Source of the DNA: a virus
Direction: 5' to 3' (one strand)
UHGV virus genome: UHGV-0173986
Length of the DNA stretch: 46,299 nt
The position numbers and the translations under genes are program-made. This document shows positions 2,191 to 16,478 of this stretch, one piece after another. How positions within the stretch are numbered: the first letter of the stretch is position 1; each line of letters begins with the position of its first letter. A model generated the notes under the pieces. That model was not told where the DNA came from. It was given only the letters and a program-made list of their open reading frames with translations, and made no database searches.

Positions 2191-2535
2191 TTATGGGGCT
2201 GGCGAATCGCCCCGCAGCAGCTGTGATACGCGAACGTCGTCAAGCGCTCGCAGGATAGGCTCAAAAGTTTTATGGGCTGGCAGTTTAGATACCGCAGTGA
2301 TCACTTCTGTAACGGTGATGTCATCGCCGCGGGGGCTATAACCACCACCTGGGCCACGCTGTGAAATTACCAGGTTACCCGCCCGCAGCTTTTTGAAGAT
2401 CTGCTCAAGGTATGAAGTAGACAGCTTTGACTCTTTACTGATGGCCGTTAGTGAAACGGGCGAGCCGTCATAGAGCTTATTCAAAGTGGCGGCGGCCTGG
2501 ACAGATGCCAGAACGCGTTTCATTCCAAATTCCAT
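2191..2535 (-). CDS. Rrf2-family winged-helix transcriptional regulator (no Cys cluster, so not an Fe-S sensor)
   Basis: ...SLTAISKESKLSTSYLEQIFKKLRAGNLVISQRGPGGGYSPRGDDITVTEVI matches the Rrf2/IscR HTH and wing (...[31 protein letters not shown]...). Start chosen at MEFGMKRV for its GGAGAAG RBS. Confidence 0.7.
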   Translation of the reverse strand: MEFGMKRVLASVQAAATLNKLYDGSPVSLTAISKESKLSTSYLEQIFKKLRAGNLVISQRGPGGGYSPRGDDITVTEVITAVSKLPAHKTFEPILRALDDVRVSQLLRGDSPAP

Positions 2536-2559
2536 AATCACTTCTCCGGCCGTAACGGC

Positions 2560-2579
2560 CATTGGTCAAAACTCGATTC
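2560..2579. repeat. 20-nt exact direct repeat cattggtcaaaactcgattc (copy 2)
   Basis: Identical to 2114-2133. Lies 25 nt upstream of the Rrf2 start on the minus strand. Confidence 0.8.
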
Positions 2580-3798: not shown

Positions 3799-4203
3799 TT
3801 AGTCTTTTTCGAATGGAGGGGGGATTTTTCGCTTACTCAGGAACTCAGCCATAAACCGATCTAACTCTTCCAGTCGCGTTCTCGCTAGTTCAATAAATCT
3901 GTCCTGCTCCACTTCAGGAAGTTGATCAAATACTTCTAATAACTCTAATTGCTTCTGATTTAGTACTGTTTTGCTGGCTGTGACAGCCTGTAATGAAGAC
4001 TCTTCTTCATCCGTCATAAAGAACCAATACAGTGGTTTTCCAAGTGCTTGCGGGAATAACTCTAACTTTTCCTTTCGCGGGAAGTTACCTGTATTGCACC
4101 AGTTACTGACTGTCTGAGAGTTTACACCCACTCGCCGGCCTAACTCAGATTGAGATATACCAGCCTCATCAAGAGCTCTTAACAGCCGTTCTTCGAAGTT
4201 CAT
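3799..4203 (-). CDS. DicA-like (XRE-family HTH) prophage repressor
   Basis: MNFEERLLRALDEAGISQSELGRRVGVNSQTVSNWC... HTH, and the C-terminal ...LNQKQLELLEVFDQLPEVEQDRFIELARTRLEELDRF resembles Qin DicA (...LSPKELELLELFNALPESEQDTQLAEMRARV...). Divergent from a cro-like gene. Confidence 0.7.
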   Translation of the reverse strand: MNFEERLLRALDEAGISQSELGRRVGVNSQTVSNWCNTGNFPRKEKLELFPQALGKPLYWFFMTDEEESSLQAVTASKTVLNQKQLELLEVFDQLPEVEQDRFIELARTRLEELDRFMAEFLSKRKIPPPFEKD

Positions 4204-4236
4204 ATTCGCATCCAAATCAAACCAGTAACCAAGCAT

Positions 4237-4324: not shown

Positions 4325-4549
4325 ATGCAAGAAACCGTTCAAAAGAAAATCATTTCCCTTTGTGGCAGTCAATCTGAACTAGCTCGCCGTTTGGGGAAGA
4401 ATTCTCAAACAGTATCGGTTTGGTTTCGAACTCAGGTTGCAAGTACTGAGGTACTCAACGCATGCAGGGTTCTGGATTGGCAAGTAACGCCTCATGAGCT
4501 TAGACCCGATCTTTACCCAAACCCGACTGACGGACTTCCAAAGGACTAA
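4325..4549 (+). CDS. Cro-like regulator of the DicC/YdaS family
   Basis: 74 aa, ...SLCGSQSELARRLGKNSQTVSVWF... HTH. C-terminus ...LDWQVTPHELRPDLYP resembles the DicC/YdaS family. AGGAGG RBS. Confidence 0.7.
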   Translation: MQETVQKKIISLCGSQSELARRLGKNSQTVSVWFRTQVASTEVLNACRVLDWQVTPHELRPDLYPNPTDGLPKD

Positions 4550-6627: not shown

Positions 6628-6640
6628 ACGAGTTTTGACC

Positions 6641-7081
6641 ATGACCAAACAATCAAAAACCAAAGTAACCAAAGCACAGATGGTGCTTGCTATCGTTAGT
6701 AGGACGCCAGAATGCGTCCTGCAGGATGTCTGTGATGCGCTGGACTTGCAAGCCAGTACGGCAGGTAACTTGCTGCGGCAGCTCCATGCCGCGGGAAAAC
6801 TCCATCGTACCCATAACGGTTGCCAGTATGTCTACCGAGTTGTTGCAGGCATTGAGGTTCCCGATGTTGCCCTGCCGCAGGCTGTAACACAATTATCTGA
6901 AGAGGATGTGAAAAAAATCCAGGACGCACTGGCCCTGGCGAAGACGCTGGAAGACAAAAAGCTGTGGCGCCGGGCTGCGACTGTTTACACATCGATGCTT
7001 GGGATGACTACAACAGCAAACGAACTCTGGTTGCTTGCCAAAATGCGCAACCGCTGCCTGCGCAATGCGACGAGGTGCTGA
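6641..7081 (+). CDS. Putative regulator with an N-terminal winged-helix-like region and a C-terminal PerC-like motif
   Basis: ...LEDKKLWRRAATVYTSMLGMTTTANELWLLAKMRNRCL matches the PerC-family WRRAA...W signature. The start codon is embedded in the recurring cgagttttgaccATG motif. Confidence 0.4.
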   Translation: MTKQSKTKVTKAQMVLAIVSRTPECVLQDVCDALDLQASTAGNLLRQLHAAGKLHRTHNGCQYVYRVVAGIEVPDVALPQAVTQLSEEDVKKIQDALALAKTLEDKKLWRRAATVYTSMLGMTTTANELWLLAKMRNRCLRNATRC

Positions 7082-8440: not shown

Positions 8441-8767
8441 TTGTACATTACCTTTCAAAGCAAAAAGTTAAGAGCTCTTTGTGAGAGTATGCACAATGCG
8501 AATGAGAACCTTGGTGAGAAACTAGCATCCAAGCTACGCGCACGCCTTTCCGATATCACCGTGGCGGACAATATTTTAGCATTGCCCGTCGGTTCGCCGG
8601 AGGTATGCTTTGAGGAAGGGGAAGAGTGTATTACAATTACCCTTTTGGGCGATAAAAAAATGGGATTTGTTTGTGGGAATACGATTCAGCCAAAAAATCA
8701 AGACAATACGATTGACTGGTCCCAGGTCAGCCGGATACGGTTAGTGTTCATAGGTGATGTGAAATGA
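8441..8767 (+). CDS. HigB-like (killer-protein, RelE/ParE superfamily) toxin-like protein; TTG start
   Basis: (M)YITFQSKKLRALCES...KLASKLRARLSDITVADNILAL parallels the HigB N-terminus MIKSFKHKGLKLLFEK...VDRINDRLQAIDTATEIGEL. Its stop overlaps the next start (ATGA). Confidence 0.45.
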   Translation: MYITFQSKKLRALCESMHNANENLGEKLASKLRARLSDITVADNILALPVGSPEVCFEEGEECITITLLGDKKMGFVCGNTIQPKNQDNTIDWSQVSRIRLVFIGDVK

Positions 8768-9846
8768 TGGTAACGCAGGACTTCCAGCCTGACTGGGTAT
8801 CTCCACCCGGTGATACGATTATAGATCTGATGGATGAACACGGAATTTCTGATGAGGAGTTGAGTAAAAAAATAGGCTTGTCCCTTGATCGGGGTCAGCA
8901 ACTTCTTGAAGGGAAACTCCGACTGAATCCGTCCCTGGCCGACAAGCTTGAAGAGCTGTTCAGTGTGTCGACGGACTTCTGGATCAGGCGCGAAGATGCT
9001 TATCGCAGGCAAATAGAACATATCCAGAAAGTTAACAGCGACTGGCTGGAATCATTGCCCGTACGCGATATGATGGAGTTTGGCTGGATCCCGAAAACCA
9101 CAACGCGGGAAAGTAAATTCCGACACTGTCTGTCGTTCTTCGGTATACACTCCGTGAGTGAGTTTTATCACAAAATACATTCTGATGCTCCACTGGTCGC
9201 CTTTCGTAAATCATTGAATCTGACGACTGAGCCTGTCGCTGATCTGGTATGGCTGACCCGTGCAGAACAGTTGAGTGCAAAACAGGTCTGCGCAGAATGG
9301 AATAAAAAGGCGCTGCAGGCGCTTTTGCCGGAGCTTCGTAGAGCAACAAACGAACCTGATATGGGAATTTTTATCCCTCACATTCGGCGGCTTCTCGCGA
9401 CTGCCGGGGTTTCGCTGATCGTGTTGCCAACGCCCAAGGGATGCCGGGCCAGTGGTGCCACCTGCTTTTTCACTCCAGACCGCGCCACGCTGGTCATGAG
9501 TTTCCGCTATCTTACCGATGACCATTTCTGGTTTACGCTGTTTCATGAGATTGGGCATCTCATTCTGCACGAGGCAGTGCAGGTTCGTGCGGAAGGTAAA
9601 GAAGGCCTGTCGACAGAAGAGGAAAAAGAAGCCGATACATTTGCTGTAGACGTCCTCATTCCTGAGGAATACAGGCAGCAACTCAGGCGCTATGGTGTTC
9701 GGCACTGGAGGGACATCGTCCGCACGGCCCGTAAAATAGGCGTATCAAAAGGGATTGTTCTCGGGTACTTACAACATGAGGGCAACATTCCTTTTTCTCA
9801 CCTTAACCGGCTTAAGGTGAGATACAGTAAAGAAGACATTGTATAA
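8764..9846 (+). CDS. Fusion protein: N-terminal HigA/XRE-type HTH plus C-terminal ImmA/IrrE-family zinc metallopeptidase (DUF955/COG2856, HEIGH motif)
   Basis: N-terminus ...WVSPPGDTIIDLMDEHGISDEELSKKIGLSLDRGQQLLEGKLRLNPSLADKLEELFSVSTDFW (HigA-like HTH). C-terminus ...FWFTLFHEIGHLILHE...EEKEADTFAVDVLIPEE (HExxH plus downstream E). Translationally coupled to the upstream HigB-like gene. Confidence 0.7.
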   Translation: MMVTQDFQPDWVSPPGDTIIDLMDEHGISDEELSKKIGLSLDRGQQLLEGKLRLNPSLADKLEELFSVSTDFWIRREDAYRRQIEHIQKVNSDWLESLPVRDMMEFGWIPKTTTRESKFRHCLSFFGIHSVSEFYHKIHSDAPLVAFRKSLNLTTEPVADLVWLTRAEQLSAKQVCAEWNKKALQALLPELRRATNEPDMGIFIPHIRRLLATAGVSLIVLPTPKGCRASGATCFFTPDRATLVMSFRYLTDDHFWFTLFHEIGHLILHEAVQVRAEGKEGLSTEEEKEADTFAVDVLIPEEYRQQLRRYGVRHWRDIVRTARKIGVSKGIVLGYLQHEGNIPFSHLNRLKVRYSKEDIV

Positions 9847-9848
9847 GT

Positions 9849-10793
9849 TCAGCCGCCAAAATAGACGTAGCGATCAGGTGACTTCTGCCAGTTACACAGC
9901 GCGTCTTCAATGACCTGCATCCTGAGATATGGTGCAGGGATAATTTCGGCAAGTTCAGCCAGTTTATCATTCAGAGTCTCTAGCCTATCACCTGCGCTCC
10001 GGCTGTTACTAAACAGCAGCCGACTCCCCTGAAGAGGGCCAGTAGCTCCCTTCAAAAAAGCATGCCCCGGTTCTGCCTCGATGAGTCCGGTTTTTCTTAG
10101 CATAGTCAGGTAATCAAATCGGGCGGTTCGTCCGAATGAAACCACCGCATTCAGGCCTGAATACAGCAATTCGAAAAGAGTAGCAGGTGTTGCCGCGAGG
10201 CTCCTTGCTTCTGCAAACCGGGCCTCGTGGCTGTATGTTGCACCAATAAATCCGAGATATGAACGAAAAACGACAGGTATAGAACGACGTGAATGATATT
10301 TTTTCGTTTCATATTTGCGGTGGTTACCATACTGTCTTAGACTGCTATGTAGGGTCAGCTCATCAGAAACGCTGGCAAACCACTGTTCAAATGCATCAAA
10401 GTCATCAGTTATGGCATCCCATGTCCACGTCTGGGTACCTAGTCCACTGTAAATATCGCGGCACAAAACCCAGCCTGTTTTACTACTCCGGCCAAAATGC
10501 GTGGCCAGAAAAACCAGCCAGCAGGCTTCGTCATAGTTGTTTTCACGCAGATGCAGACACGCAGCACGAAGAGGATCAAATAAATCTGAGTTTGGCTCTT
10601 TTCTTAGCGGATTCATATAATCGGTTCGTGATGTCAGCGTTGACATATAGCGAATGCGGCGAATACTGTCAATAATCTGAAAGGCTAATACATTATAGTG
10701 AGCCGCAGAACTCAGTCCGTTTAGGATATGTTTATCGCGACTGAAGTTTTGAAGAGCGGCGACCAACTGGCTTGCCTGACTGTGTCTGTTCAT
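9849..10793 (-). CDS. Hypothetical 314-aa protein, translationally coupled partner of the TS-fold enzyme (function unknown)
   Basis: Start overlaps the stop of the upstream TS-like gene (TAATG). No P-loop or other motif I can name. Confidence 0.6.
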   Translation of the reverse strand: MNRHSQASQLVAALQNFSRDKHILNGLSSAAHYNVLAFQIIDSIRRIRYMSTLTSRTDYMNPLRKEPNSDLFDPLRAACLHLRENNYDEACWLVFLATHFGRSSKTGWVLCRDIYSGLGTQTWTWDAITDDFDAFEQWFASVSDELTLHSSLRQYGNHRKYETKKYHSRRSIPVVFRSYLGFIGATYSHEARFAEARSLAATPATLFELLYSGLNAVVSFGRTARFDYLTMLRKTGLIEAEPGHAFLKGATGPLQGSRLLFSNSRSAGDRLETLNDKLAELAEIIPAPYLRMQVIEDALCNWQKSPDRYVYFGG

Positions 10794-12028
10794 TATATTT
10801 TCCCGTCAAAAATAAATCGGTATTCCTGATTATTCAACGCAGTCAGCTCCTGACGGGCCAGCTCGTTGTGTGCCGACGTATGTGAACGTAACAAAAAATG
10901 GACTTTTATCACGCGCAGAAGATCCTTCCAGTAGTCACTCAAGGGCGTAGTATCGATATTAAATTCCTTGTTTTCCCGCAGAGCCTTTTCTGCTTCAAGG
11001 ATGACTGTAATGTCCTTTAAGGATTGAATTTCGGGCATATCACCCATCACCGGCAAGGTACTCATAAAGCCTTCTTGTCGTAGCGCTTTTACTTGTTCAA
11101 AATGTTCTTCATAGATATGGAGGCTTGAGACGAAGTGATGATAATACCCCAGTTTGCATCCGGTGAGGCGGGCGACCAGTTCCTGCAACATCGTGAAGGA
11201 GAACACATCATGGGGTAAGCCCATAAAGGCATCGTTAGAGCGCATACAGACAAAAAGATGCAATGCATCTTGTCTGACAATAAATTGCAACGATATAGTG
11301 CACGGAATATCGGCATATTCTGTCTGCTCTGGATTACCCGTCACCAGATCTGAGGCATCAAACAGTTGTATCAGCGCGCGTCGAGTAGTTCTTTTCTCCT
11401 GCAGCAGACTGATGACATTTTCCAACTGATTATACAGCCCGTGCATACTAAATAATCTCGGACCGTATCCCCCGTGTATTCTGCCGTCGGATTCAGCGTA
11501 TTTTACGTAGCGAGGTATGAAGTGCCGGATGAAATCGAGATCGTTCTGGGCTGAGAGGTACCATAGCAATTCCCCCAGACAGCTGACAATTTTACCGCGG
11601 GATTCTGTCCTACTTATTCTGCGGCGAGGATCGGTGAGAATCAGGTAGGCTCCCAGAATTTCAATATTTGCTCCTTTAGTGGGAGTATTCCAGAGTCCGC
11701 CAGTAAGGATCGCCTGATGGACATCGTTTAACAGATCGTCAACACATTCAGCCGTCACCAGAAGAGTCATAAACTGCCTGTTATATAATGAATGTAACAA
11801 ATCATTACCACTAGTGCGATAAATAGTCAACATGCCATTAGTAAAAACAGGGCTATAACCGCTATGACACATATCATCAGGTGCGAGGTTTGACACCCAT
11901 GTTTCCTCCATTCCCTCTGGAAGCAAAAAATGTTCACGTAGAATAAGAACTGAGGGACGCAGACGCATGCAGGCCACTCGCCAGGGTATTCCTCCAAATG
12001 AACTGGCCGGTTTCCTAATATCAGCCAT
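10793..12028 (-). CDS. Thymidylate-synthase-fold enzyme with a ~130-aa N-terminal extension (dUMP/dCMP methylase or hydroxymethylase-like)
   Basis: Motifs align with ThyA: KIVSCLGELLWYLSAQND (vs HELLWFLQGDTN), RRALIQLFDASDL (vs RRIIVSAWN), and the catalytic-Cys region IPCTISLQFIVRQDALHLFVCMRSNDAFMGLPHDVFSFTMLQELVARLTGCKLGYYHHFVSSLHIY (vs [66 protein letters not shown]). Confidence 0.75.
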   Translation of the reverse strand: MADIRKPASSFGGIPWRVACMRLRPSVLILREHFLLPEGMEETWVSNLAPDDMCHSGYSPVFTNGMLTIYRTSGNDLLHSLYNRQFMTLLVTAECVDDLLNDVHQAILTGGLWNTPTKGANIEILGAYLILTDPRRRISRTESRGKIVSCLGELLWYLSAQNDLDFIRHFIPRYVKYAESDGRIHGGYGPRLFSMHGLYNQLENVISLLQEKRTTRRALIQLFDASDLVTGNPEQTEYADIPCTISLQFIVRQDALHLFVCMRSNDAFMGLPHDVFSFTMLQELVARLTGCKLGYYHHFVSSLHIYEEHFEQVKALRQEGFMSTLPVMGDMPEIQSLKDITVILEAEKALRENKEFNIDTTPLSDYWKDLLRVIKVHFLLRSHTSAHNELARQELTALNNQEYRFIFDGKI

Positions 12029-12356
12029 TAAAATAGCGCTGTAAACTTCATTACCAAATGCGGCGCGCCTGTAAGGGCCTGACTACAGGTTTAAACACTG
12101 TGCAACCACAAGTCCTAGGTCCGCTCTTCGCTCATAGCGGACCTCCAAATCAGTTAGTTTGTCCGCTCTGTGCCAAGAGCGGAATCTGGAACGCCAGAGG
12201 TAGCAACGTTTCTTATCAAAGGTGTTGATCACCACAAAAATGACTGTATCCCTGTGATAGCGGATTTCGTCCTTTGTGGAGAAAAGATCAATCTAAACAT
12301 GAGCATGGGTTAGCGAAAAGTGGCATTAAACGCTTGAACATTTCACCTAACAAGTA

Positions 12357-12376
12357 TACTGTTTATTTATACAGTA
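12357..12376 (+). promoter_or_regulatory. LexA (SOS) box taCTGTttatttatACAGta upstream of the dinI-like gene
   Basis: Perfect CTGT-N8-ACAG palindrome 20 nt upstream of the RBS/start of the DinI homologue. Confidence 0.8.
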
Positions 12377-12395
12377 CTTGCGTGAGGAGCTAGTT

Positions 12396-12629
12396 ATGAA
12401 AGTGGAAATCACAATTGATCGCCAAAAAAAATTGCCGGATGGCGCTGTGCCTGCTCTGGAGAAGGAGCTACTGCGGCGATTGGATCAAAACTTTAATAAC
12501 TGCAGTCTTGTGATTCGTCGGGCCAGCTCCGATGGTTTGACCGTGCTTGGTGGAATGGACGGAGATAAAAAACGTATTGAGGAAATCCTGCAGGACACCT
12601 GGGAAAGCGCTGATGACTGGTTTTGTTAA
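12396..12629 (+). CDS. dinI: DinI-family protein (DNA-damage-inducible protein I homologue)
   Basis: MKVEITIDRQKKLPDGAVPALEKELLRRL...LTVLGGMDGDKKRIEEILQDTWESADDWF closely matches E. coli DinI (MRIEVTIAKTSPLPAGAIDALAGELSRRI...ISEILQETWESADDWF). GAGGAG RBS. Confidence 0.85.
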   Translation: MKVEITIDRQKKLPDGAVPALEKELLRRLDQNFNNCSLVIRRASSDGLTVLGGMDGDKKRIEEILQDTWESADDWFC

Positions 12630-12673
12630 GTTGAGGTCCAGTGGCTTGCCTGGTTTATTTTGAGGATTTGGCT

Positions 12674-12931
12674 GTGAGTAAAAAACAAGAAATGCCGAAC
12701 ACCGGCTATGCAATTATCAGATGCGACGATGGGGTGATCGTTGCTCGTCTGACATCCTTTCCTGTGTGTGAGCGCGCTCTGATGTACCGACGCGGCGATA
12801 CTGTTTCGTTTATGCCTTTGCAGCCGGATGAGATCGTGGGGACTCTCTCTCTATTTTCACAGATGATTGAAAAGGCTAAGTCTGGCGTTGGTTACCAGGT
12901 TCCCCCTGGTTCTGTTACAATCCCGTCATAG
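12674..12931 (+). CDS. Hypothetical protein (about 85 aa)
   Basis: ORF in an operon with dinI. GTG start with GAGGA RBS (alternative ATG at 12692). No recognisable family. Confidence 0.35.
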   Translation: MSKKQEMPNTGYAIIRCDDGVIVARLTSFPVCERALMYRRGDTVSFMPLQPDEIVGTLSLFSQMIEKAKSGVGYQVPPGSVTIPS

Positions 12932-12971
12932 GCCTGAACAACCTATACCTGCTGCGTCGCGGAGAGAAACC

Positions 12972-13364
12972 ATGACGCAAACCCCCGAAGTATCAAAATC
13001 CCATCAGACTGGTGCTCCTTCATCGAGCGCCGGTTTGCTTTCGTCTTCAAAACTAACTTTTCGCCAGCAGGAAGTTTTCGATCTGCTGGTGGCCTACATC
13101 AATCAGCATGGCTACCCACCTACGCTATCTGAGTTGGCCGATATGCTCGGCGTTAGCTCGTCTAATGCTGTCCTGTTGCATCTGCGTGCGTTAGAGAGAA
13201 AAAATTTTATAAAACTCTCTCGCCGTGTCTCAAGAGGAATTTCCATCGTCGGGCGAAAGGAGCCTATGCTCGCCGTGCAGCTGCTGCAGGAAATGATCGC
13301 TGAAGAACCCGGCGCGCGTGAAAGAGCGATTGAGTTTTTGCGACTGTTCGGTGATCAGCCATGA
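12972..13364 (+). CDS. LexA N-terminal DNA-binding-domain protein without the S24 peptidase domain (non-cleavable LexA paralogue)
   Basis: [66 protein letters not shown] aligns with LexA [66 protein letters not shown]. It is 130 aa and lacks the Ala-Gly cleavage site and Ser/Lys dyad region. GGAGAGA RBS. Confidence 0.7.
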   Translation: [130 protein letters not shown]

Positions 13365-13564
13365 AGAAAAGTTGGTTTTTACACGAGCAGCTTTCAGAGA
13401 CTGAGGCTACAGAGCTGGTGGAGCGATACCGTAAAAATAACTGTGTGGTTGAGAAGAGCTTATCCAGAGACTTTGCATCGTGGGAGATCCGCGTGTTGTT
13501 GCCGGAATCGAAGAAGCCGCCACGGATTGACAGAACCTACATACAGAAGATGTGGAGGGACTGA
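13361..13564 (+). CDS. Small hypothetical protein (67 aa), translationally coupled (ATGA/TGATG overlaps)
   Basis: ORF bridged by overlapping stop/start codons on both sides. Confidence 0.35.
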   Translation: MKKSWFLHEQLSETEATELVERYRKNNCVVEKSLSRDFASWEIRVLLPESKKPPRIDRTYIQKMWRD

Positions 13565-14595
13565 TGCGAGCTTTGCTTAACGTGGATATTGCACGCCATC
13601 TTGGAATTGTGCTGCTTAAGCCGGGTAGTGAATTAATGCCGTTATTCGGTGCCGGCCGAGTTCTTGTTGAAATGCCGCCGGCAAGCATGAAAAAGATACC
13701 CAGTGGACGTCTTCCTGATGCCCGGCAGCCGTTGCGGGATGATATGGGGATCAGACCTTTTTTCATGAAGAAGGCAGTTATCACTGCAGCTGGTGGGGTT
13801 AGTGCCCTCGAGTCATGGTTGCGTAGGCAGGTTAAAAACTGTCAGTGGACACATTCCGATTACCATCACCTTGAGCTCGTCCCGTTTCGCCATTCGACGG
13901 GTGTAATAATCGCATGCTGGCACTGTGATAATGAGCTGAAAAACCAAACAGAACAAACCCTCAATCAACTGGTAGGTGTTAACAACGCTGACTGGGTAAT
14001 CGACACTGCCCGCATCGCGCTTGGTCTGGACGCGCAGCGCTCATTGTCACTGGCGGAGCTATGCTGGTGGGCGGTAGGCGCCGGGATTGGCGATGAAATT
14101 ACAGAAGAAATGGCGCGCCGATCCCTGCGTATTAAAGGCGATGGCATTAAATCGGTTTACAGGGAGAGTGAGATTGTTCCGTCTGTACCGGCCACCAGTA
14201 TTCTTTCTCCCCGTCTCGAAAAAACAATCAAGCCAACGGCAATAACAACGCCGGGCAAACCTCTGGTTCCTGTGAACGTCGATCCTGTTGCTCCGGCGAC
14301 ACTATTCGCGAGACCTAAGCGGAGCCGATGGTTATCAGCTGACTTTATCTCATGGGTTAAAAAACAGCCGTGTATGTGCTGCGGGCAGCCTGCAGATGAT
14401 GCACACCATCTTATTGGCTGGGGGCAGGGCGGCGTAGGCACCAAGGCCAACGATATTTTTACGATCCCATTATGCCGCAAGCACCACCGTGCTTTGCACC
14501 ATGACCCTGCCGCTTTTGAGCGTGAATACGGCACCCAGCCGGTATTGATTATTAAATTGCTGGACCGGGCATACGCGCTCGGCGTTCTGGCGTAG
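13564..14595 (+). CDS. DUF968-domain protein (YdfU-like, lambdoid nin/late-regulation region)
   Basis: C-terminal Cys/His motif ...CMCCGQPADDAHHLIGWGQGGVGTKANDIFTIPLCRKHHRALHHDP typical of DUF968. It precedes the Q-like gene, as in Qin. Confidence 0.65.
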   Translation: MRALLNVDIARHLGIVLLKPGSELMPLFGAGRVLVEMPPASMKKIPSGRLPDARQPLRDDMGIRPFFMKKAVITAAGGVSALESWLRRQVKNCQWTHSDYHHLELVPFRHSTGVIIACWHCDNELKNQTEQTLNQLVGVNNADWVIDTARIALGLDAQRSLSLAELCWWAVGAGIGDEITEEMARRSLRIKGDGIKSVYRESEIVPSVPATSILSPRLEKTIKPTAITTPGKPLVPVNVDPVAPATLFARPKRSRWLSADFISWVKKQPCMCCGQPADDAHHLIGWGQGGVGTKANDIFTIPLCRKHHRALHHDPAAFEREYGTQPVLIIKLLDRAYALGVLA

Positions 14596-15334: not shown

Positions 15335-15361
15335 AAAACCCCGCCCGTGCGGGGTTTTTGC
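15335..15361 (+). terminator. Intrinsic terminator (tR'-like), about 65 nt downstream of the candidate late promoter; its symmetric A/T flanks could also terminate minus-strand transcripts
   Basis: aaaaCCCCGCccgtGCGGGGttttt. Confidence 0.7.
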
Positions 15362-15661: not shown

Positions 15662-15837
15662 TTTACTTACCTCGTATTTACCTGATATCAGTGAGTGCTA
15701 CATTGAGTCAGGGCTTCGCAATAGCTTTAAGTATTAGAATGCATACAATTTAAGTGGGCGTTGTTGGCTTATATTATGGCAGAGGCGCTGGCGGTATGGT
15801 CAGATATTGACACTTTGAATGTTTGCATCATAAATTA

Positions 15838-15958
15838 TTGAGGTGGTGAATCCCCCTATGCGGAGGGGCGACCAGTCAGTTACAGAAACCTGTAAATGCA
15901 GCGCGGGCCATGCCGACTGGGGCATGCTCACCGGGAGGCACCCGGCACCACACTGTCA
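15838..15958 (+). ncRNA. Copy A of a roughly 120-nt conserved structured element (candidate sRNA or antitermination RNA)
   Basis: GGTGGTGAATCCCCCTATGCGGAGGGGCG ... CAGCGCG ... ACCGGGAGGCACCCGGCACCAC. Two GC hairpins (cccct-N6-agggg and ccggg-N5-cccgg). About 75% identical to copy B. Confidence 0.35.
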
Positions 15959-16112
15959 CTAAGCATATTGAATATTTCATAGTGGGTTTACTTTTGCGGT
16001 TGCCCTTCTATGTTTATAGAACGTAACGGCAAAAGTGAATGCTTCCTGGTAAATCGGTAGCTCGGACTATTAGGTGCACCTTCCTTTCGTTACAGCCTTG
16101 GTTGCCAATTTT

Positions 16113-16140: not shown

Positions 16141-16327
16141 ATTCATAATCTGCCCAAAAAAACATCAAAGCAAGGAAGGCGATGGATTCATTTGCAGGAA
16201 CTCCTTTCCCCTTCAACGGAGACAGGCTCAAAGCAATAAGAAGCGGAACAGAAGGATGCTTTGCGCCGAAAAATTAGGTCATAGCGACGCATGGCATTGA
16301 AGAGATGTTATTGAGATGTTAAGTTTT

Positions 16328-16478
16328 ATGGGTGGTGAATCCCCCTAGCGGAGGGGCGTAAACAGTTAGAAGCGAATCCTCAGCGCGAGTCACGGTGACT
16401 GACCAACGACTTACCGGGAAGCACCCGGCACCACCACTTCACCTCAAGCCCACGTTAACGCGTGGGCTGTTCTTTTCC
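16328..16478 (+). ncRNA. Copy B of the structured element with its own 3' intrinsic terminator (candidate ~150-nt sRNA unit about 150 bp upstream of the holin)
   Basis: GGGTGGTGAATCCCCCTAGCGGAGGGGCG ... CAGCGCG ... ACCGGGAAGCACCCGGCACCACC then AGCCCACGttaaCGTGGGCTgttctttt. Upstream ttattgaga/tttatg elements could be a promoter. Confidence 0.4.

Follow-up and report, generated by a model that had tools for sequence, protein, structure and literature searches.

A probable SOS-sensing induction module with an accessory LexA-domain-only protein in a Gifsy-type lambdoid prophage of Klebsiella pneumoniae

Why would a prophage place a DinI homologue and a LexA DNA-binding domain without its protease behind a LexA box, and would such an operon hold induction back or set it off? 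The question is raised by positions 12357-13364 of the virus genome UHGV-0173986, of which the whole stretch of 46,299 nucleotides (nt) is referred to here as the window. The initial annotation of this region took the two proteins for a paired module that buffers the host SOS response. We consider it highly probable that the region serves a Gifsy-type lambdoid prophage of Klebsiella pneumoniae as an induction module that senses the SOS signal, and that the protein with the LexA domain (the LexA fragment) is accessory to this module and not its core. The key gene is orf85, which lies between the genes of the two proteins and was skipped initially.

The comparison with the Gifsy prophages of Salmonella carries this reading. 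Gifsy repressors are short and are not cleaved, and induction requires a LexA-repressed unit downstream of the replication genes, which consists, in this order, of a dinI homologue, a small antirepressor gene with a non-AUG start (GftA, GfoA, GfhA) and a homologue of irsA; Klebsiella and other enterics have conserved the dinI-irsA region (PMC3121763; Lemire, Figueroa-Bossi and Bossi 2011). Read directly from Gifsy-2, the order is LexA box (11082-11097), dinI, gftA, STM1020, STM1021.1n, NinG and Q. Four of the five sequence features of such a module were identified in the window, namely a promoter LexA box downstream of the replication genes, dinI, an antirepressor candidate with a non-AUG start and a short repressor.

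The antirepressor candidate is encoded by orf85, for which no Pfam match was found and whose GTG start is preceded, 7 nt upstream, by a GAGGA motif. For comparison, the reading frame of GfoA was recovered from 50 IMG/VR prophage loci by means of primer le117 (Table S1, PMC3121763); it has a TTG start and 82 amino acids (aa), and its C-terminus agrees with the translated primer le163 up to …RRLGYRVTPPSD. The orf85 product showed 37% identity to this Gifsy-1-type GfoA over 84 aa, thus over its whole length (E 3e-12), and both proteins matched phrog_340 and phrog_1813. Homologues of orf85 are always located directly after the first gene (dinI or recA, where present) of LexA-box operons; in SPN3UB, pAEv1818, mEp237 and Chris1 they follow right after dinI, behind a LexA box. 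SPN3UB gp59 was considered as GfoA itself and was rejected, as it only has the upstream sequence of the Gifsy-1 dinI in common.

The presumed target of the antirepressor, the immunity repressor of the prophage, showed full-length homology to GftR (35%, E 8e-23), GfhR (33%, E 2e-17) and GfoR (28%, E 2e-12) and is DicA-like (NF007257, E 2.5e-17); Pfam gives helix-turn-helix (HTH) domains only and no Peptidase_S24. Since orf85 encodes a GfoA homologue and the repressor is of the short GftR/GfoR type, the main job of the module would be to trigger induction, as Gifsy-type antirepressor operons do in relatives, and not to buffer it.

The LexA box that the initial annotation placed before a DinI-family gene was confirmed. 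Its core CTGTTTATTTATACAG (12359-12374) is the sole CTGT-N8-ACAG in the 46.3-kb window, 18 of the 20 positions of the box (our count) are identical to the E. coli consensus TACTGTATATATATACAGTA, and 19 nt separate its end from the ATG of dinI, which has GAGGAG as a ribosome-binding site. The bare 16-nt pattern is not significant alone, with at least one match in 39 of 100 shuffles; we accept the box as real because of its position and conservation, and not because of the rarity of the pattern. More than 10 diverged prophages have a box before the first gene of the operon, and it stands at the equivalent place in Gifsy-2, SPN3UB, mEp237, Chris1 and several Klebsiella, Raoultella and Enterobacter prophages. 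The -10-like TATACT of a putative promoter overlaps the left half of the box, and the Gifsy-2 counterpart, TTGAAT - 15 nt - TATACT, is homologous. Promoter and box could be aligned across eight phages; the promoter was missed by a consensus scan because of its 15-nt spacer. The equivalent box of Gifsy-2 was shown experimentally to confer SOS control (PMC3121763). Further upstream, at the position where the window has a pair of inverted repeats, Gifsy-2, SPN3UB, mEp237, Chris1 and Klebsiella sp. I138 carry a GC-rich terminator hairpin, AACCCGCTnCGGCGGGTTTTT, which was not found in the window in the promoter-region alignment.

We also searched the window for extra LexA-like boxes with up to 2 mismatches; 18 were found where 13 were expected, which is no enrichment, and none stands out. 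Outside the window, Klebsiella phage ST846-OXA48phi9.1 (MK416021.1; locus L001 of our comparison set) has a second perfect SOS box, TACTGTTTTTTTGTACAGTA, at 3996-4011, 18 nt upstream of two hypothetical minus-strand genes that the window lacks; the pair resembles SOS-controlled cargo. Another CTGT-N8-ACAG, GGCTGTAAGTAACCACAGAG, was identified within the 5′ part of an antirepressor-like/regulator gene in two phages carrying a 106-aa homologue of the LexA fragment (L002 74-89, in SfV orf37, and L005 600-615, in cdtI orf44), where it may be either a chance match or a regulatory site.

Taken as an induction module, the operon would work as follows. In the undamaged cell, host LexA on the single box over the -10 would silence it, as the sequence and the Gifsy-2 experiment lead us to expect. 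Upon DNA damage, RecA* would bring about the self-cleavage of LexA and the operon would be transcribed; the antirepressor would then bind the protease-less repressor and free lytic transcription, judging by homology to the proven Gifsy proteins. DinI would be an accessory protein that binds the RecA filament, its slot probably serving to sustain the RecA* signal. The LexA fragment, which would be made only once LexA is gone, is predicted to be a RecA*-insensitive DNA-binding protein, because the cleavage loop and the S24 domain are lost, and may act as an accessory regulator. A hairpin in the first 25 codons of its gene may partly terminate the transcripts of the SOS promoter after the antirepressor gene.

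The likeness of the 130-aa LexA fragment to the LexA N-terminal domain, proposed initially, was borne out when the protein was checked against PF01726. The protein also matches phrog_362 (phage 'transcriptional repressor', E 1.5e-41), with residues 26-128 on profile positions 2-104 of 106. In the AlphaFold2 model (mean predicted local distance difference test, pLDDT, 75; about 85-90 over residues 30-126), residues 1-25 are disordered, 30-92 form a winged helix and 97-126 form two C-terminal helices. The top Foldseek matches are structures of E. coli LexA (3jsp, 3jso, 1jhh), with a root-mean-square deviation of 0.6-1.8 Å over 66 residues and 52% identity, and a PDB profile search returned LexA entries only. 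The score against TIGR00498 was 68.6, compared with a cut-off of 110.95, and this match runs to profile position 99, the two C-terminal helices giving a weak alignment with the part of LexA just past the cleavage site; this suggests descent from full-length lexA. Thus, the initial description of a protein with no hinge, no Ala-Gly site and no S24 domain stands for the Ala-Gly loop and the catalytic domain, which are missing, but does not stand in full, as the C-terminal helices weakly match the post-cleavage segment. The cleavage loop and the Ser/Lys dyad are missing in all 101 aligned family members.

It was also suspected that the protein might be a full-length LexA broken by a frameshift; this was rejected. 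The frames downstream of 13364 code for other proteins (the STM1021.1n homologue and the DUF968 protein), a Pfam scan of the protein gave no S24 match, and a tblastn search of the window with the C-terminal domain of LexA gave no S24 remnant (its best match, at E 0.022, lay in an unrelated place). The length of the homologues is uniform, 130-135 aa at 52-98% identity in Klebsiella, Raoultella, Enterobacter and Phytobacter, and the two largest clusters, of 1,017 and 664 member sequences, have the same 130-aa length. Phages of Salmonella, Citrobacter, E. coli and Shigella have homologues of about 106-108 aa, and a relative of the LexA fragment is encoded in 348 IMG/VR stretches. The LexA-domain-only protein is thus a genuine, conserved and uncleavable LexA derivative of a large uncharacterised phage family. 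It was also considered as an IrsA homologue, which was rejected, as Gifsy-2 STM1020 is NinB/DUF1367-like and belongs to phrog_319 (NinB/Orf). A lone 130-aa LexA-fragment gene without phage neighbours was found in Klebsiella aerogenes (L153, 2501-2893), where it adjoins a LysR gene and a pair of SIR2_2 and ParA-like genes; this is probably what is left of a prophage.

How fixed is the pairing of DinI with this protein? Only 8 loci came from a scan of genome contigs, and most of those from IMG/VR were K. pneumoniae prophages that are nearly identical, so that the diversity of loci came from individually added sequences (Raoultella, K. michiganensis, Enterobacter and others). DinI covers profile positions 1-63 of 63 of PF06183 and is 64% identical to the DinI of Gifsy-2; its score lies under the cut-off of the NCBIfam equivalog NF007893 (91.1 vs 111 bits), hence we take it for a paralogue of phage type, distinct from the chromosomal dinI. 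In the siblings, the first slot of the operon varies: Klebsiella sp. I138 and K. oxytoca have dinI there, Raoultella, K. michiganensis and three metagenome contigs have a recA homologue that is complete (361-369 aa, with RecA_N and RecA_C), and two Enterobacter loci have nothing. Among the loci with recA, L069 has two adjacent CTGT-N8-ACAG boxes, and in L070 and L071 an imperfect, box-like second repeat adjoins the first box. As dinI alternates with recA, the first slot seems to support or sustain the RecA filament signal rather than to damp it, which speaks against the damping of RecA* that had been ascribed to DinI. This alternation is in itself a natural experiment on the use of DinI to a phage.

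The third slot is similarly variable and holds the LexA fragment, NinB/IrsA or nothing. For the 130-135-aa form, 9 of the 10 diverged loci share the order LexA box, first gene (when present), GfoA-like gene, LexA fragment, orf67, (RusA) DUF968 and Q; the tenth is an isolated remnant. The box, dinI, orf85 and orf67 are present in Chris1 without the LexA fragment. The form of about 106 aa (SfV orf42, cdtI orf48, Stx2a_WGPS2, L013, L014, L017 and L018) belongs to ordinary nin regions that have neither a box nor dinI. When the 80 best IMG/VR loci, nearly all close relatives, were counted, the box, dinI and orf85 were found upstream in 70 by a first test, and most of the remaining loci had the box further upstream or too little flanking sequence. 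As judged from this synteny, it is the LexA box and the antirepressor that stay constant, and DinI and the LexA fragment, which the initial annotation saw as paired, are not a fixed or co-evolved pair.

Several points weigh against an induction module with an accessory LexA fragment. The irsA gene, the fifth feature of the Gifsy module, is replaced by the gene of a LexA_DNA_bind protein, which makes the operon a variant rather than a copy; the identity of the orf85 product to GfoA is only 37%, and direct BLAST of this product against GftA gave no similarity. Non-polar deletions of dinI or irsA had no induction phenotype in the Gifsy study (PMC3121763), and the accessory roles that we propose for DinI and the third gene may be subtle. 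The association of the 130-135-aa form with the box is tighter than pure mosaicism predicts, which leaves room for a functional tie of this protein to SOS. Finally, we infer, all three, the binding of LexA to the box, the binding of the antirepressor to the repressor and the extent of the transcript.

Which DNA, then, would the LexA fragment bind? The base contacts of LexA are made by helix-3 residues Ser39, Asn41, Ala42, Glu44 and Glu45 (PMC3091678). Three of these five are retained here, and Glu44 and Glu45 are both Leu (…SNAVLLH…). Across the family, Ser39 is kept in 101 of 101 members, Asn41 in 100 and Ala42 in 92, and Arg52, Lys53 and the wing Ser63-Arg64-Gly65-Ile66 are conserved; Arg28 is not. 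Position 44 is never conserved as Glu and is mostly Ala, while position 45 is Glu or Asp in 72 of 101 members, Leu in this clade, and was replaced independently in several lineages of the 130-aa subfamily (position 44-45 pairs LL, TL, VA, LA, LT and AV). With three contacts kept and Glu44 and Glu45 lost, SOS-box mimicry is possible but unproven. The covariation of recognition helix and box was uninformative, since all boxes are canonical whatever the helix. A CAGCA-N14-TGCTG palindrome was rejected as an operator, being a coding artefact inside the RQQEVFDLL codons of the LexA-fragment gene. Interference by a family member in phage 1720a-02 was also set aside, as the 'bully phage' preprint credits Cro and not the relative of the LexA fragment.

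For the role of the protein we tentatively put first, as a possibility that still falls short of being probable, a winged-helix factor that acts after SOS onset in the manner of GIL01 gp6, recognises its own palindrome elsewhere in the prophage or has a relaxed specificity, and times later expression by activation or repression. The precedent, gp6, is a truncated LexA made from a LexA-repressed promoter that binds a non-SOS palindrome and activates a late promoter (PMC6182141). The divergence of the recognition helix at positions 44 and 45 agrees with such a role, and, as members of the family also occur away from SOS operons, a neighbouring LexA box cannot be a requirement for its function. 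Less favourable is that the search for palindromes shared by the nine gene-bearing loci gave no candidate operator, that no additional LexA-like box stands out in the window, and that the likeness to gp6 rests on a shared Pfam domain.

Somewhat doubtful, though a live minority possibility, is that the protein is an uncleavable LexA mimic, which after the loss of LexA would re-occupy the CTGT-N8-ACAG boxes of its own promoter and of host SOS genes. The antirepressor would then come as a self-limiting pulse, and the host SOS response would be shut down, possibly together with those antirepressor operons of rival prophages that LexA controls, with DinI modulating RecA*. The near-identical fold and the 52% identity to the LexA domain argue for this, as do the retained contact and wing residues and the position of the 130-135-aa subfamily behind a LexA box, beside DinI or RecA. 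The N-terminal cleavage fragment of LexA itself keeps some repressor activity, which is why E. coli removes it by ClpXP, and this residual activity also favours the mimic. The base contacts that are lost in this clade and Arg28, however, are a difficulty, and the spacing of LexA half-sites is set by a C-terminal dimer that is absent here. Moreover, members of about 106 aa are nin-region genes in SfV, cdtI, Stx2 and mEp460-type phages, where no SOS box is near, host LexA alone explains the boxes, and recA in the dinI slot is at odds with a damping module. The sole characterised truncated LexA homologue, GIL01 gp6, binds a different site and activates.

The fuller form of this idea appears rather improbable to us, namely that a RecA*-proof LexA surrogate re-represses its own box, the host SOS genes and the antirepressor operons of co-resident prophages, with the hairpin and the dinI/recA slot tuning its amount; if it were true, the antirepressor signal would become a pulse and competitors would be silenced. 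The weight that we give neither to SOS-box re-occupation nor to an own or relaxed site goes to other roles. That the LexA fragment is a functionless, decaying remnant of a captured lexA or of a frameshifted full-length repressor is extremely improbable, as the weak alignment of its tail with the LexA segment after the cleavage site is outweighed by the uniform length across four genera and in the large clusters, the invariant winged-helix core, the conserved C-terminal helices modelled at a pLDDT of about 85, the translational coupling to the next gene, the lack of an S24 coding remnant in any frame of the window by tblastn and the same architecture throughout phrog_362.

The hairpin in the 5′ part of the LexA-fragment gene spans codons 12-25, with a free energy of -20.4 kcal/mol (z -4.75) and the tail CUUUCGUCUUC; an Rfam search gave no family at this place. 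Its 7-bp core stem was followed in 14 diverged loci, where 93.9% of the cells are paired compared with 20-51% when the partner is slid, and there are compensatory changes at 2 stem pairs, with a covariation score above all 500 shuffles. With 14 related sequences, this amounts to moderate evidence for conservation of the stem. The hairpin is at the same offset in L012, L016, L069-L072, L149 and L152-L156. The arms of the stem encode the sole semi-conserved residues (TG … AG-LSS) of the variable N-terminal extension, which is lacking in the 106-aa forms outside SOS operons. The conserved 'AG' of this extension was considered as a cryptic cleavage site and is better explained as the 3′ arm of the hairpin. 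Plausibly, the hairpin is a partial terminator or attenuator, or else a processing or stabilising element, that parts the dinI-antirepressor message from the downstream nin genes, and translation through it could modulate its action.

The positions of the features are collected in Table 1.

Table 1. Features of the SOS operon, its surroundings and the immunity region in the window, with the recA genes of sibling loci (numbered within each locus)
Feature	Position	Strand	Evidence
Prophage immunity repressor, short HTH-only Gifsy/DicA type; presumed antirepressor target	3799..4236	-	homology
Cro-like regulator, divergent from repressor	4325..4549	+	phrog_35 E 1.1e-20
Pair of 23-nt inverted repeats, divergent intergenic region upstream of SOS promoter	12120..12183	.	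repeat search
Promoter-like TTGAAC - 15 nt - TATACT	12334..12360	+	read from sequence; function inferred
Host LexA operator (SOS box) TACTGTTTATTTATACAGTA	12357..12376	.	sequence pattern and positional conservation
dinI homologue, 77 aa, first gene of the operon	12396..12629	+	PF06183 E 1.3e-25; phrog_189
GfoA-family antirepressor candidate, 85 aa, GTG start (orf85)	12674..12931	+	phrog_1813 E 1.9e-37
LexA DNA-binding-domain-only protein, 130 aa	12972..13364	+	PF01726 LexA_DNA_bind E 1.9e-20, residues 26-89
RNA hairpin (13-bp stem 13005-13037) with U-rich tail, terminator/attenuator-like	13005..13047	+	terminator scan; function inferred
67-aa protein, Gifsy-2 STM1021.1n homologue	13361..13564	+	phrog_1212 E 1.7e-24; 37% identity, E 6e-14
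DUF968/HNH-like protein, 343 aa, nin-region gene	13564..14595	+	PF06147 E 6.7e-68; phrog_96
Q-like antitermination protein, 200 aa	14612..15214	+	phrog_753 E 1.8e-54
Symmetric GC-rich hairpin flanked by A run and T run, bidirectional terminator-like	15335..15358	.	terminator scan
recA genes in the dinI slot of sibling loci	L069 1599-2684; L070 1598-2683; L071 1600-2685; L154 1075-2184; L155 344-1429		

The whole window is a lambdoid prophage: its integrase gene lies at 280-1407, the genes for immunity and replication occupy 3.8-7 kb, and those for lysis, head and tail are found from about 16.4 kb onwards. The region showed 96-98% nucleotide identity to Klebsiella phages Kp4865-4 and ST846-OXA48phi9.1, and the proteins that it encodes have 97-99% identity to their counterparts in a prophage of K. 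pneumoniae ATCC 13883. After the box come five closely packed genes on the plus strand, the start of the 67-aa gene overlapping the stop codon of the LexA-fragment gene (ATGA), and a sixth, Q-like gene comes beyond a 16-nt gap; the first strong terminator after the operon is the bidirectional hairpin.

Other genes of the window were noted in passing. Divergent from the SOS operon of this temperate Klebsiella prophage, a thymidine-hypermodification-type gene pair occupies 9849-12028 on the minus strand and encodes an aGPT-Pplase3 / amino-acid:DNA transferase protein (PF18746 E 1.3e-89, PF18724 E 1.7e-56) and a thymidylate-synthase-like protein of 411 aa (PF00303 E 5e-28). Between the replication and the hypermodification genes (8441-9846, plus strand), the stop of an open reading frame of 108 aa overlaps the start of the gene of a 360-aa HTH_3 and Peptidase_M78 (IrrE/ImmA-like) protein, a pair that looks like toxin-antitoxin or stress-sensor cargo. 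In the interval from the Q-like gene to the lysis genes there are two copies of the Rfam small RNA STnc100 (15810-16015 and 16303-16474, plus strand; 79.9 and 70.7 bits, with a gathering score of 47). The early-left region encodes an Rrf2-family regulator (PF02082 E 3.4e-14; 2191-2562, minus strand), and a PerC-like transcriptional activator (phrog_1324 E 2.3e-47) is encoded after the replication genes (6635-7081, plus strand).

K. pneumoniae prophages of this kind are very common, as seen from the more than 1,600 sequences in the LexA-fragment clusters and the 348 IMG/VR stretches. Their assignment to a Gifsy-type switch shows how DNA-damaging antibiotics would induce them and the deletion of which small gene would lock them in. 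The LexA-domain-only family, moreover, is widespread in enterobacterial lambdoid phages, including those of the Stx2, SfV and cdtI types, and is uncharacterised. Should the fragment indeed bind SOS boxes, phages would encode a brake, insensitive to RecA, on both the SOS response of the host and rival prophages; should it bind its own site instead, it would give a second, independent example of a phage recruiting LexA as a timing factor.

The initial annotation named no characterised system with such a pairing of a truncated LexA mimic and DinI; both the operon type, from Gifsy, and a truncated LexA under LexA control, GIL01 gp6, are known. Compared with Gifsy-1, -2 and -3, the operon has the box over a homologous promoter, dinI first, the antirepressor second and the STM1021.1n homologue and Q downstream, with a short, non-cleavable HTH repressor elsewhere in the prophage. 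What sets the locus apart from the known Gifsy-type module is the LexA fragment in the irsA slot, where Gifsy has a NinB/DUF1367-like gene. It further differs by DUF968 in place of NinG, by the hairpin in the 5′ end of the third gene, by a divergent cargo cluster in place of the upstream terminator and by its Klebsiella host. Coliphage 186 Tum and the split tum of PSP3 and Fels-2 also join a LexA-controlled antirepressor, fused or adjacent, to a DinI-like domain (PMC3121763). They resemble our operon in the linkage of an SOS-box-controlled antirepressor to a DinI homologue, whereas in 186 the antirepressor comes before DinI, the phage is P2-like and there is no LexA-domain gene.

Among LexA-like proteins, the phrog_362 members of nin regions (SfV orf42, cdtI orf48, SfII, mEp460 and Stx2; about 106-108 aa) have the same architecture of winged helix and two helices at 42-44% identity, but are flanked by a dam/PAPS-reductase-like gene and rusA, have neither an SOS box nor dinI nearby and lack the 25-residue N-terminal extension; no characterised member was found in the literature searched. 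Host LexA shares the fold of the DNA-binding domain with the LexA fragment, which retains Ser39, Asn41, Ala42, Arg52, Lys53 and the wing but, unlike LexA, has no Ala84-Gly85 loop, no Ser119/Lys156 protease/dimerisation domain and Leu for Glu44 and Glu45. The natural autocleavage fragment of LexA is short-lived, the cleaved products being degraded (PMC3159453), whereas the protein here ends in …LFGDQP. GIL01 gp6, with 44% identity to the LexA domain of its host, is expressed from a LexA-repressed promoter, binds GaCACAnnTGTGaC and activates the late promoter (Fornelos et al. 2018, PMC6182141). Like the LexA fragment, it is essentially a LexA winged helix without a protease domain behind a LexA-repressed promoter, a placement that is predicted here from the sequence. 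It is, however, shorter, belongs to a Gram-positive tectivirus of Bacillus thuringiensis and has a demonstrated binding to a non-SOS palindrome, whereas the Klebsiella protein, compared with it by Pfam domain, has a disordered N-terminal extension and two extra C-terminal helices.

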